Source: an uncultured Verrucomicrobiae bacterium
GTDB lineage: Bacteria; Verrucomicrobiota; Verrucomicrobiia; Palsa-1439
Direction of reading: 5' to 3'
Assembly (NCBI GenBank): GCA_963812605.1
Contig: CAWEWF010000014.1
Span: 768,001 to 832,000 of the forward strand
Length of the DNA: 64,000 bases
Shown piece after piece: positions 44,677 through 48,040 of the stretch. Under the pieces are notes generated by a model. The model worked only from the letters and a program-made list of their open reading frames with translations. It was not told the DNA's origin and searched no databases. Numbering within the stretch: position 1 is the first letter of the stretch; each line of letters starts with the position of its first letter. The position numbers were made by a program, and so were the translations under genes.

Positions 44677-45984
44677 TCAAATTCGGGCACCCGCCGGGAT
44701 GACCGCATTCTTGGGGATGATGACAATCCCATCGCGAATAAAATAGTTCGGCCCGTCGAAGTCCGGACACTTACTTTTATCCGTAATCACCACGCCCTCA
44801 CCGATGTGCACGTTTTTGTCGATAATAGCCCGCTCGATTTTCGACCCGCGTCCGATGCTCATGTGCGGTATGCCCATCGCATCTTCTTCGAGCATTTCGT
44901 GTTGCGTCTCATAAAAGTCGCATCCCATGATGATCGTATCGCGCAATTCGCAATCGGTCCCGATGAACGAGCGAACGCCCACGATTGTATTCTCGATGCG
45001 GGAACGCAGGATGACGCAGCCGTCCGCGATCAGGGCCGTGCGGATATCACTTTCCACCACTTTCGATGCCGGCAGGAACCGGGCGTGCGTGTAGACCGGC
45101 GCGTCACGGTCGAAAAAATTGAACGATGGCTTGAGCGAACAGAGGGCAAGGTTCGCGTCGAAGAACGAGCGAATGGTCCCCACGTCCTCCCAATATCCCT
45201 GAAAAATGTAGGCCGAAACCCGATGCCGCCCGATCGCGTCGGGAATGATGTGCTTGCCGAAGTCCGTCTTGTCGTTGTCCAGCACCTTGCGGAGAATTTC
45301 GCGGTTGAATACGTAAATGCCCATCGACGCGAGATAGTGGTCCTGGCTGCTGGTGATGCGGACGTGCGAAAGTAACGGGTCCTGGAGCTTCAGCTCATCC
45401 AGCAAGTTTTCATCCTTCGGTTTTTCCACAAAGCGCACAATCCGCTTTTCCTCGTTCACCTGCAAAATGCCCAGCGACGTTGCTTCTGCTCGCGTCACCG
45501 GAATCGTGGCAATCGTAATGTCCGCATAGCTCTCCACGTGTTGTTGAAGGACCCTCCGAAAATCCATGCGATACAGTTGGTCGCCCGACAGGATCACGAT
45601 ATACTCGTAATCCTGCTCCAAAAAATACCGCAGATTCTGGCGCACGGCATCGGCGGTTCCCTGGTACCAGCTCGATCCGCCCGTCGTCTGCTGGGCAGCG
45701 AGGATTTCCACAAAGCCCCGCGAAAACCGGTCAAACGCGTAGCTCTGGTGAATATGGCGGTGTAACGATGCCGAGTTGAACTGCGTGAGGATGTAAATGT
45801 GGCGGATATTCGAATTGATGCAATTGCTGATGGGAATATCGACCAGGCGGTACTTGCCCGCGATCGGAACAGCGGGCTTCGAACGTTCCTTGGTCAATGG
45901 AAAAAGCCGGCGGCCTTCCCCTCCGCCCATGATGACACCGAGGACATTCGTGGGCGTTACCGGCCTGAGTCCAAGTGGAGCCAT
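44677..45984 (-). CDS. glgC: Glucose-1-phosphate adenylyltransferase
   Basis: GGGEGRRLFPLT..RSKPAVP, WYQGTADAV, LSGDQLY, FVEKP and ASMGIYVF motifs. Confidence 0.97.
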   Translation of the reverse strand: MAPLGLRPVTPTNVLGVIMGGGEGRRLFPLTKERSKPAVPIAGKYRLVDIPISNCINSNIRHIYILTQFNSASLHRHIHQSYAFDRFSRGFVEILAAQQTTGGSSWYQGTADAVRQNLRYFLEQDYEYIVILSGDQLYRMDFRRVLQQHVESYADITIATIPVTRAEATSLGILQVNEEKRIVRFVEKPKDENLLDELKLQDPLLSHVRITSSQDHYLASMGIYVFNREILRKVLDNDKTDFGKHIIPDAIGRHRVSAYIFQGYWEDVGTIRSFFDANLALCSLKPSFNFFDRDAPVYTHARFLPASKVVESDIRTALIADGCVILRSRIENTIVGVRSFIGTDCELRDTIIMGCDFYETQHEMLEEDAMGIPHMSIGRGSKIERAIIDKNVHIGEGVVITDKSKCPDFDGPNYFIRDGIVIIPKNAVIPAGARI

Positions 45985-45989
45985 GTATG

Positions 45990-46047
45990 ATACTAGTCAA
46001 ACGCCCAGCATCGCGTCAATTGACAATCTGCTGAAACTGGATACAGT
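45990..46047. promoter_or_regulatory. Back-to-back divergent promoters for glgC (-) and glmS (+)
   Basis: Minus strand TTGACG-N18-TAGTAT ending 5 nt before the glgC ATG; plus strand TTGACA-N16-TACAGT; the two -35 boxes abut in CGTCAA|TTGACA. Confidence 0.6.
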
Positions 46048-46177
46048 AACCAGCGTCGGCAGTAAAAAAACAAACGCGATTCGAAGTCCACGCAATTGTG
46101 ATTCGCCATCGCTGCCGACGCCCGGATATTTCGGGCGGTAGAATCATCGTCGCGCGACTTCAGATAAGGACCGTACC

Positions 46178-48040
46178 ATGTGTGGCATTATTGGCTACAT
46201 TGGCAAGAAACCCGCCCAAAATGTCATTCTCGAAGGCCTCCGCCGTCTCGAATATCGCGGCTATGACTCAGCGGGCCTCTGCATCATTAATAACAAAAGC
46301 GCTTTTGAACTCCGCAAGAAGAGCGGCCGCATCAACGATCTCGCTGCCGTCCTGGCCAAACAACCCGCCAAGGGCGACGCCGGCATCGGCCACACGCGCT
46401 GGGCGACACACGGACCGCCCACCGACGCCAACGCGCACCCACACCTTGACCAATCGGGCAAAATTGCGCTCGTTCATAACGGCGTCATCGAGAACCACCA
46501 GCTTCTCAAGGAACGGCTCCTCGCCAAAGGCCATACGTTCACTTCCCAGACTGACACCGAAGTGCTCGCCCACCTTGTCGGCGACCATTATGAGAAAGTC
46601 CATGCGGAGAATCCCGGCGCCAACGGATCCACACTCCCCGAGGCCGTTCGCCTCGCGCTCAAGGACGTGGTGGGCACCTACGGTATCGCCGTCGTCCACG
46701 CGGATCATCCCGACCAAATTGTCGGGGCCCGTCGTGGAAGTCCGCTCCTCGTCGGCGTGGGGCGCGACGAGAATTTTCTCGCAAGCGACGTGAGCGCCAT
46801 CATCGCCCACACACGCCGGGTGGTATATCTGAACGACTTTGAAATCGTCACGCTTTCTCGCGATGATTTTCAGGTTTCCACGATTGAGGCCGCGACGGTC
46901 AGCCCGCAAATCCGTGAAGTCGAATTCGCCGCGGAAGAGGTGGAACGCGGGAAGTTCCCGCACTTCATGCTCAAGGAGATCTTCGAGCAACCACAAGCGG
47001 TGCAAAACGCCATCCGCGGCCGTATCAGCCACGACGAAGCCACCGCCCGCCTCGGCGGCCTGAACCTGGCCCCGGGGGAATTACGGACCGTCGACCGCAT
47101 CATCTATATCGCCTGCGGCACTGCGTTGCATGCCAGCATGGTCGGTGAATACTTGATGGAAGATCTCGCGCGGATCCCGACCGAGTGCGACTACGCGAGT
47201 GAGTTCCGCTACCGCAACGCGCCGGTCGAGAAGCATACGCTGGTGTTCGCCATCAGCCAATCGGGTGAGACGATCGACACGCTGGCTGCCGTGCGCGAAT
47301 CGCGCCGTAAAGGCCACAAGACGCTCGGGATCGTCAACGTCGTCGGCTCGACCATCGCCCGCGAAGTTGACGGCGGCACGTACATGCACGCAGGGCCGGA
47401 AATCGGCGTGGCGGCGACCAAGACTTTCACGTCGCAGATTACCACGATGACCTTGCTGGCGGTGCTGATGGGACGGATGCGCCATTTGGCTTCCACGCGC
47501 GGCACGGAAATCCTGCGCGCGCTGGAGGAAATCCCGTCGAAGATGGAACGCGCGCTCAAGCAGAGCGACGCGATCGCGGCCATCGCCAAAAAGTACTGTG
47601 ACGCCAACAGCTTTCTGTTCCTCGCGCGCCAGATCAACTTCCCCATCGCGCTCGAAGGCGCGTTGAAGCTCAAGGAGATCTCGTACATCCACGCCGAGGG
47701 CTATCCCGCCGCGGAGATGAAGCACGGCCCCATTGCGCTCGTCGATCCGCGCACACCCTCGGTCTTTCTGTGTCCGAAGAACTCGGTCTACGAGAAAGTC
47801 ATGGCCAATATCGAGGAAGTGAAAGCGCGCAAGGGACCGGTGATCGTCGTGGCGACCGAAGGCGATGAGAACATCGCGAAGCGTGCCGACGATGTGATTT
47901 ACATTCCCGACACGCTGGAATGCCTGCAGCCGTTGCTCACCGTTCTGCCGCTGCAACTACTCGCCTACCACATTGCCGTCCTCCGTGGTTGCGACGTGGA
48001 TAAGCCGCGTAACCTGGCCAAGAGCGTCACGGTTGAATAG
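46178..48040 (+). CDS. glmS: Glutamine-fructose-6-phosphate aminotransferase
   Basis: MCGIIG, LEYRGYDSAG, HTRWATHG, SQSGET and DKPRNLAKSVTVE motifs. Confidence 0.99.
   Translation: MCGIIGYIGKKPAQNVILEGLRRLEYRGYDSAGLCIINNKSAFELRKKSGRINDLAAVLAKQPAKGDAGIGHTRWATHGPPTDANAHPHLDQSGKIALVHNGVIENHQLLKERLLAKGHTFTSQTDTEVLAHLVGDHYEKVHAENPGANGSTLPEAVRLALKDVVGTYGIAVVHADHPDQIVGARRGSPLLVGVGRDENFLASDVSAIIAHTRRVVYLNDFEIVTLSRDDFQVSTIEAATVSPQIREVEFAAEEVERGKFPHFMLKEIFEQPQAVQNAIRGRISHDEATARLGGLNLAPGELRTVDRIIYIACGTALHASMVGEYLMEDLARIPTECDYASEFRYRNAPVEKHTLVFAISQSGETIDTLAAVRESRRKGHKTLGIVNVVGSTIAREVDGGTYMHAGPEIGVAATKTFTSQITTMTLLAVLMGRMRHLASTRGTEILRALEEIPSKMERALKQSDAIAAIAKKYCDANSFLFLARQINFPIALEGALKLKEISYIHAEGYPAAEMKHGPIALVDPRTPSVFLCPKNSVYEKVMANIEEVKARKGPVIVVATEGDENIAKRADDVIYIPDTLECLQPLLTVLPLQLLAYHIAVLRGCDVDKPRNLAKSVTVE

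Follow-up and report, generated by a model that had tools for sequence, protein, structure and literature searches.

The glmS locus and its promoter

In the window (the whole stretch of 64,000 nucleotides analysed here), the divergent genes glgC and glmS are separated by an intergenic region of 193 nt (45985-46177, read directly from the sequence). Profile searches find these two genes, and only these, flanking the RNA element described below. The features of the locus are:

44677-45984, minus strand: glgC, divergent from glmS (NF002772, 612.7 bits)
46020-46047, plus strand: glmS promoter, with -35 box TTGACA (46020-25), a 16-nt spacer and -10 box TACAGT (46042-47); 10/12 consensus matches
46053-46164, plus strand: complete conserved RNA motif (match to covariance model R1 at G000:C14:814053-814164, 124.2 bits, the single match in the genome)
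46166-46170, plus strand: Shine-Dalgarno sequence AAGGA, outside the conserved fold (direct reading)
46178-48040, plus strand: glmS, glutamine--fructose-6-phosphate transaminase, 620 amino acids (TIGR01135, 805.4 bits, cut-off 418)

The promoter described in the initial annotation, TTGACA-N16-TACAGT upstream of glmS, is recovered by a promoter scan at 46020-47, where it matches the consensus at 10 of 12 positions. The end of the -35-like hexamer lies 28-31 nt from the first nucleotide of P1, the first helix of the RNA, in 64 of the 65 homologous loci with enough upstream sequence for this measurement, and the alignments contain a TAnnnT box at the expected spacing after the hexamer. These distances put the expected 5' end of the transcript at P1, with a margin of about 2 nt, and the start near 46053, at the first helix, that had been proposed agrees with this conserved promoter, from whose match it is predicted. 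RNA-library contigs of relatives (about 88-97% identity) span the leader, one of them crossing the promoter and another extending upstream into the relative's -10 region; such contigs reveal neither starts, ends nor strand. Five RNA runs, sharing only 4-5% of sampled words with the window, were found, and four of them were used.

The sequence GTCAATTGAC at 46015-46024 is a perfect 10-bp palindrome and contains two back-to-back -35 boxes, of which TTGACA serves glmS on the plus strand and TTGACG serves the divergent glgC on the minus strand. Of 65 homologous loci, 43 have the palindrome in the 60 nt preceding the motif, and a divergent glgC is found upstream of the motif in 50 of 63. It could be an operator for a transcription factor common to glgC and glmS. 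Two loci from another family of the class (L024 and L025) also have glgC and glmS in divergent orientation, with an intergenic region of about 90 nt that lacks the motif; the gene pair is thus older than the RNA.

The genome to which the window belongs is 90% complete, which bounds all whole-genome absences reported here. RNase Y (663 bits) is the sole major endonuclease found in it: the RNase E/G domain has no match in this 90%-complete genome, and the best RNase J score is 19 bits against a cut-off of 400. The models RF00083, RF00128 and PF03668 (GlmZ, GlmY and the RapZ N-domain) have no match in the 90%-complete genome either, while the E. coli control was matched.

Parts and fold of the leader RNA

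The RNA at 46053-46164 is about 110 nt long and is essentially the entire 5' leader of the glmS mRNA. Its parts, from 5' to 3', are:

46055-46063, plus strand: P1 5' strand, GUCGGCAGU, paired with 46111-46119 and located at the predicted transcript start or about 2 nt from it at most
46064-46082, plus strand: A-rich linker between P1 and P2, with A46068 and A46069 invariant (67 sequences)
46083-46088, plus strand: P2 5' strand, GAAGUC, paired with 46156-46161
46089-46098, plus strand: internal loop, 5' side; CACGC (46089-93) nearly invariant, 46094-98 variable except G46098 (67 sequences)
46091-46093 with 46152-46154, plus strand: P2a (possible), CGC with GCG, the pairs being invariant or varying to G.U only
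46099-46107, plus strand: P3 5' strand, UGAUUCGCC, paired with 46137-46146, A46140 being bulged
46108-46110, plus strand: link of 3 nt from P3 to the P1 3' strand (3 nt in 61/67 sequences, 2 nt in 6/67)
46111-46119, plus strand: P1 3' strand, GCUGCCGAC, inside the P3 apical loop
46120-46136, plus strand: P4, a variable hairpin GCCCG / loop / CGGGC (5/5 pairs changed on both sides, 78.5% of cells pair)
46137-46146, plus strand: P3 3' strand, GGU-A-GAAUCA, paired with the P3 5' strand
46147-46155, plus strand: internal loop, 3' side; variable UCGU-C, then nearly invariant GCGC, with C46155 unpaired and invariant
46156-46161, plus strand: P2 3' strand, GACUUC, closing the domain

The fold is a long irregular hairpin, composed of P2, the CA/C internal loop, P2a and P3, with the variable P4 as its cap. 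The helices that had been drawn beforehand are all found in the sequence. Direct reading confirms that the 5' sequence GCGTCGGCAG (46053-62) is perfectly complementary over 10 bp to CTGCCGACGC (46112-21), and the pairings GAAGTC/GACTTC (46083-88/46156-61) and (G)TGATTC/GAATCA(T) (46098-104/46141-47) are present, as is the CCCG/CGGG cap (46121-24/46132-35). The distance from the end of the hairpin to TAAGGA, given as 4 nt in the initial annotation, is in fact 3 nt (AGA, between GACTTC and TAAGGA).

Among the relatives, P2 occurs as AAAGUC/GACUUU, CAAGUC/GACUUG and GAAGCC/GGCUUC, and as GCGGUU/AACCGC in the divergent member L128; in L128 and in L071, also divergent, P3 has a wholly different sequence with its pairing preserved. 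P4 is missing from 2 of the 67 sequences, where only 4 nt are left in its place. The linker between P1 and P2 is 18-21 nt long in 57 of the 67 sequences (range 14-27) and has a mean A content of 0.54. Amid the covarying stems, five unpaired nucleotides are invariant in all 67 sequences: A46068 and A46069 in the linker, and C46089, A46090 and C46155 in the internal loop. P2a varies only through G.U pairs, so that covariation is uninformative for this helix.

Conservation and covariation

Taken singly, the RNA of the window is unremarkable: its minimum free energy is −42.8 kcal/mol, compared to −39.5 ± 3.7 kcal/mol in shuffled sequences (z = −0.89), and an equally stable fold is found for 37 of 200 shuffles. 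The evidence for a structured RNA thus comes from related sequences. A GlmS protein query found glmS in 40 of 41 related genomes, and 30 loci were taken. Five of these, from other families of the class (L024, L025, L026, L029 and L030), have leaders without similarity to the motif leaders and were left out of the alignment; the remaining 25 leaders can be aligned over their full length, from promoter to start codon. Pairing was scored in three alignments, each with a count of pairs changed on both sides and 500 shuffles as control:

A1 (MAFFT), 25 leaders: 94.7% of cells paired; 14/32 pairs changed on both sides; shuffle mean 3.7, reached by 0/500
A4 (diverse subset), 28 sequences: 93.1% of cells paired; 19/32 pairs changed on both sides; shuffle mean 9.3, reached by 0/500
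A8 (genomes and metagenomes), 67 distinct sequences: 96.5% of cells paired; 18/27 pairs changed on both sides; shuffle mean 6.5, reached by 0/500

The sequences are kin, and the shuffle controls therefore overstate the significance. Alignment A8 combines 43 genome copies with 24 metagenome loci chosen as distinct, one of 25 new distinct metagenome sequences having been omitted. When the 3' partners in A8 are slid by 1-3 columns, pairing drops to only 29.6-48.1%. The check for covariation in orthologous leaders that the initial annotation had proposed thus comes out in its favour, the verrucomicrobial leaders being conserved and their helices covarying across 25, 28 and 67 sequences.

In A8, both sides have changed in 8 of the 9 pairs of P1, with 95.2% of cells paired. 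P1 is absent from both covariance models, R1 and R2, and its alignment is therefore not fitted to P1; the alignment of P2 and P3 is fitted to the covariance model. Pairing reaches 99.7% of cells in P2 together with P2a and 94.7% in P3, and in each of the two, 5 of 9 pairs have double-sided changes. The G.U pairs in A8 identify the plus strand as the functional one. In the covariance-model alignment, L128 and L017, the most divergent members, are shifted in P1 and P3 and are therefore counted as mismatches there. For four divergent members, RNAduplex pairs the first 14 nt with the P3 loop in a P1 duplex of 9-10 pairs (−16 to −20 kcal/mol), one duplex having an internal mismatch and another a bulge, and RNAfold recovers the long hairpin. 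A scan of all column pairs of A8 yielded one additional pair, 46095-46150 (AU 37, GU 7, GC 17), which stays tentative because non-pair columns have the same clade pattern.

Two further alignments, A3 and A5, were excluded from counts and models, each containing one reverse-strand chance match (27.7 and 20.8 bits). The reverse complement of the motif, at L052:1527-1634 and L048:1530-1636, reaches 20-28 bits with R1, owing to partial self-complementarity of the helices. Judged by sequence comparison, 46053-46164 is a real conserved structured RNA and not a chance fold.

One pseudoknot or two competing folds

The 3' strand of P1 lies within the apical loop of P3 and its 5' strand upstream of P2, making the fold an H-type pseudoknot. 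The corresponding strand order, S1a-S2a-S1b-S2b, is found with P1 (46055-63/46111-19) and P3 (46099-107/46137-46), both of which covary. The conserved helices P1 and P2/P3 have no nucleotide in common, and we infer that they are formed simultaneously in one molecule. In such a molecule the A-rich linker would return alongside the stacked P3 and P2 helices (about 20 bp).

The initial annotation had suggested a different arrangement, in which the 5' helix (46053-62/46112-21) and the long hairpin, extended by a TGCCG/CGGTA helix (46113-17/46136-40), compete and interconvert, switching expression. Both pairings do occur in the sequence of the window, and the minimum-free-energy structure from RNAfold contains P1, with the hairpin close behind. 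However, P1 and P2/P3 both covary on separate nucleotides, and the competitor helix does not covary. Across 28 relatives, TGCCG/CGGTA is paired in 78.1% of cells, with a double-sided change in only 1 of its 5 pairs, and 20 of the 28 lack its first pair; this helix is therefore real as a complementarity in the window, but is not maintained among the relatives. Changes in the 3' strand of P1 are matched by the 5' strand of P1, at the 5' end of the RNA, and not by CGGTA, while the CGG(U) strand covaries with GCC at 46105-07, that is, within P3 (A4). In the same alignment, column pair 6-76, which belongs to P1, has GC 23 times, AU 3 times and UA once, with none unpaired, whereas column pair 76-104 of the proposed competitor has CG 22 times, UG 3 times and other combinations 3 times. 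Two natural variants without P4 keep P1 inside a P3 loop of 16 nt and thus retain both helices. We consider an exchange between two folds very improbable.

Distribution and association with glmS

Two covariance models were used for searches: R1, built from 25 sequences with the nested helices only, and R2, from 29 more diverse sequences. In the genome of the window, R1 has exactly one match, at 46053-46164 (124.2 bits), and in 42 of the 47 genomes of the order it has one match per genome. The five misses differ in kind. One genome has its glmS cut by a contig end (G048), in two no glmS was found with the GlmS query used (G049, G025), and one contains a divergent copy, scoring 23.8 bits with R1 with filters off and 51.8 bits with R2 (G054). 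The fifth, from one genus of the same family (L130, G055:C71), has a glmS that is 47% identical, with the same promoter and a leader of about 25 nt without the motif; the divergent glgC, the palindrome and a TATACT -10 box are kept about 220 nt before glmS. This locus looks like a replacement of glmS in place, in which the RNA was lost together with the old gene.

Outside the order, R1 has no match in 132 genomes of the class, and R2 none in 150 other genomes of the phylum, both with stricter filters that could miss weak variants. When 185,579 species genomes were scanned for an exact pattern, 56 stretches were returned, of which 32 score at least 69.9 bits with R1; all 32 are titled as Verrucomicrobia, Verrucomicrobiia, Verrucomicrobiae or Verrucomicrobiota MAGs, and the other 24, with R1 scores of at most 22 bits, are chance matches. 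The same pattern returned 70 stretches from metagenome contigs, 42 scoring at least 63.8 bits with R2 and 28 failing the threshold of E 1e-6 with that model.

Every copy is located directly before a glmS start (85/85; 43/43 from genomes and 42/42 from metagenome contigs), and the glmS start, within about 20 nt of each motif copy, reads MCGI(I/V)(G/A)Y, once with GTG. The motif is present in single copy, always before glmS, and is confined, among the genomes searched, to the order of Verrucomicrobiia to which the window belongs.

The ribosome-binding site and the 3' side of the motif

In all 67 sequences, the last nucleotide of P2 and the start codon are 12-20 nt apart, and in the homologues the Shine-Dalgarno sequence is 0-9 nt downstream of P2. 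In partition-function folds of 43 leaders, each extended by 33 nt into the coding sequence, the Shine-Dalgarno region has a mean predicted unpaired probability of 0.23-0.94 across the 43 homologues and is predicted to be mostly open. Sequestration of the Shine-Dalgarno sequence was considered and rejected, as these 43 leaders have no consistent pairing of it; GGAC/GUCC and CUUC/GAAG occur in some genera only. Neither an intrinsic terminator on the plus strand after the motif nor a conserved alternative pairing that sequesters the Shine-Dalgarno sequence was found. Pairing of the P1 3' strand with glmS codons 4-6 (AUCGGC), possible in some sequences, is lost when P1 changes and was also discarded. 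For the majority of homologues, RNAfold predicts pairing of codons 7-9 with the start codon and codons 2-3 (46176-46203 in the window); as the conserved MCGIIGYIG N-terminus constrains this sequence, covariation is uninformative here.

Comparison with known RNAs

The leader differs from the canonical glmS ribozyme, as had been claimed: it has no RF00234 match, and neither of the ribozyme core strings, AGCGCC and GACGAGG, is present in 45985-46177. The proposed scan with the Rfam 15 covariance models, including RF00234 (gathering score 37 bits), gave no family match at E≤10 that we retain in the region 45900-46300; the sole hit there, 12.9 bits (E 5.8) for a Yfr1 hairpin on P4, is a chance match. 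At E≤5, none of 20 homologous loci has a match on the motif, an unrelated Histone3 match (21.7 bits) lying elsewhere. No RF00234 match came up in any of 151 genomes of the class, although B. subtilis and D. radiodurans, run as controls, were both detected. The motif belongs to no known family among those compared. On the three points that the initial annotation had named as decisive, the computations thus find covariation, a start predicted at P1 and no Rfam match.

Several pseudoknotted RNAs invite comparison. The SAM-II, preQ1-II/III and fluoride riboswitches are pseudoknots that act on translation, and in most of these classes the Shine-Dalgarno sequence is part of the pseudoknot. They share with the motif an H-type pseudoknot, a purine-rich loop strand along a helix and an aptamer (in the motif, a candidate one) beside the ribosome-binding site; the motif differs in being about twice as large, in leaving the Shine-Dalgarno sequence 3-9 nt outside the fold and in using the very 5' end for its pseudoknot. 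An HDV-like ribozyme is located upstream of glmM in Faecalibacterium and resembles the motif in its nested pseudoknot, in having the first helix at the 5' end and in the adjacent amino-sugar gene. However, in the motif P3 encloses the 3' strand of P1 and P4, and a separate P3/L3 hairpin, part of the HDV topology, is lacking. The first pair of P1 is not a conserved G.U (GC 28, GU 17, AU 14, UA 2, other 6; n = 67), and the HDV family has no Rfam match in the region searched or in the 20 homologous loci. An HDV-like topology was rejected, as the strand order differs.

Two systems that control glmS itself were also compared. The glmS ribozyme, as described in PMC5473149, is a self-cleaving sensor of GlcN6P that controls glmS in many Gram-positive bacteria. 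Like the motif, it is located in the glmS 5' UTR, is pseudoknotted, has no obvious expression platform and is expected to provide feedback by a pathway product; unlike it, the motif starts at the predicted transcript start, and helix order and conserved nucleotides differ. The hosts differ too, an order of Verrucomicrobia for the motif and Gram-positive bacteria being those named in PMC5473149. The motif probably acts at the glmS ribozyme's place and to the same end. In E. coli, GlmZ and GlmY activate the glmS mRNA, as stated in PMC2267818. The GlmY/GlmZ-RapZ system of Enterobacteria controls glmS post-transcriptionally at the leader or ribosome-binding site, as is proposed for the motif, but consists of trans-acting small RNAs and an adaptor protein, whereas the motif is encoded in cis.

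In the literature we found no description of a verrucomicrobial glmS leader RNA. The main texts of three motif-discovery studies (PMC5737381, PMC8632094 and PMC11109978) contain no glmS, glucosamine or Verrucomicrob; their supplementary lists could differ, an entry there being argued against by the negative Rfam result. The motif is apparently an undescribed RNA family, with strong comparative support.

Possible function of the motif

We propose that the motif is a new cis-regulatory RNA class that probably senses an amino-sugar metabolite, with GlcN6P as the prime candidate; from the sequence comparisons, we put the probability of this reading at roughly one half. Two features expected of a riboswitch are found, namely a covarying, structured candidate aptamer and a position in cis before a gene of the candidate ligand's pathway. 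The anatomy is also riboswitch-like, with a peripheral hairpin that is dispensable and variable in length and a linker of conserved length. The leader would act as a cis-acting feedback sensor of amino-sugar status, most likely through a small-molecule ligand, GlcN6P in the first place and UDP-GlcNAc in the second. This ligand would sit at the invariant CA/C loop, touched by the invariant AA of the linker. Once bound, it would lock the compact pseudoknot, tying up the 5' end, 12-20 nt before the start codon, and the locked fold may lessen 30S loading on the adjacent open Shine-Dalgarno sequence or alter the access of the decay machinery. Switching would then consist of the stabilization of one compact fold rather than the exchange of two alternative helices.

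Against a metabolite speaks the fact that much of the invariance sits within the helices P2 and P2a and not in loops, a pattern equally compatible with recognition by a protein and with tertiary contacts. Because the motif occurs at one gene in one order, gene context cannot separate a metabolite from a protein partner. A serious rival is that the pseudoknot recognizes no metabolite and is instead bound by a protein, or targeted by a trans-acting small RNA, that reports amino-sugar status. By analogy, its logic would be like that of ribosomal-protein leaders or of the GlmZ/RapZ circuit. The clusters of invariant nucleotides in AGUC (P2), CGC/GCG (P2a) and UCGCC (P3) favour this idea, as does the lack of an evident expression platform. 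In the S15-rpsO 'entrapment' system a pseudoknot abuts the Shine-Dalgarno sequence, a layout that the motif resembles. No candidate partner was found, however: the RapZ N-domain, GlmZ and GlmY were not detected in the 90%-complete genome and the flanking genes are just glgC and glmS. A bound protein or small RNA is therefore an explanation we take seriously but regard as unlikely.

We attach still less weight to two other explanations. The motif might be a new self-cleaving ribozyme, either metabolite-dependent or constitutive, whose cleavage marks the glmS mRNA for decay. It occupies the genomic position of the glmS ribozyme, likewise without an evident expression platform, its pseudoknotted core contains invariant nucleotides, and RF00234 is not found in the class (0/151 genomes). 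Yet with the motif beginning right at the predicted transcript start, cleavage near the 5' end would release almost nothing; no Rfam ribozyme family was matched, and the strand order is unlike that of HDV-like ribozymes. In B. subtilis, RNase J degrades the cleaved glmS mRNA, and with an RNase J match of only 19 bits (cut-off 400) in the genome of the window, such a route is not evident. We judge self-cleavage improbable. To about the same degree we doubt that the element is constitutive, with a pseudoknot that buries the 5' end and an A-rich standby site, stabilizing the mRNA or enhancing translation without sensing anything. That P1 pairs the first nucleotides of the transcript, that the linker is A-rich and the Shine-Dalgarno sequence open, and that both P1 and the hairpin are stable in isolation according to the predictions would all agree with this. 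But a simple terminal hairpin would suffice to protect a 5' end, and a four-helix pseudoknot with invariant unpaired nucleotides, found at glmS only, is far more elaborate. Moreover, the genus with the replaced glmS kept the promoter and dropped the leader, which ties the RNA to the control of the original gene.

Returning to a metabolite-sensing leader, its most specific form would be a second, structurally unrelated and independently evolved RNA class for GlcN6P (or UDP-GlcNAc), be it a riboswitch or a metabolite-dependent ribozyme. We advance this tentatively, at somewhat less than even odds. It would have arisen in a Gram-negative-type host in whose 90%-complete genome RNase J and RNase E were not found; as a riboswitch, it would have its 5'-end pseudoknot locked beside the ribosome-binding site.

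Implications

For feedback control by RNA, glmS is a textbook example, and to our knowledge the glmS ribozyme is the only RNA known to sense GlcN6P. With the alignment of 67 sequences, the hypothesis can be put to a direct test on a transcript of about 125 nt. If true, a second, unrelated fold at glmS would represent convergent RNA control at one metabolic node, and the motif would be a new aptamer for an amino-sugar phosphate. The Verrucomicrobia are a poorly cultured phylum for which we know of almost no characterized regulatory RNAs, and the motif would then offer a first look at post-transcriptional control in these bacteria.
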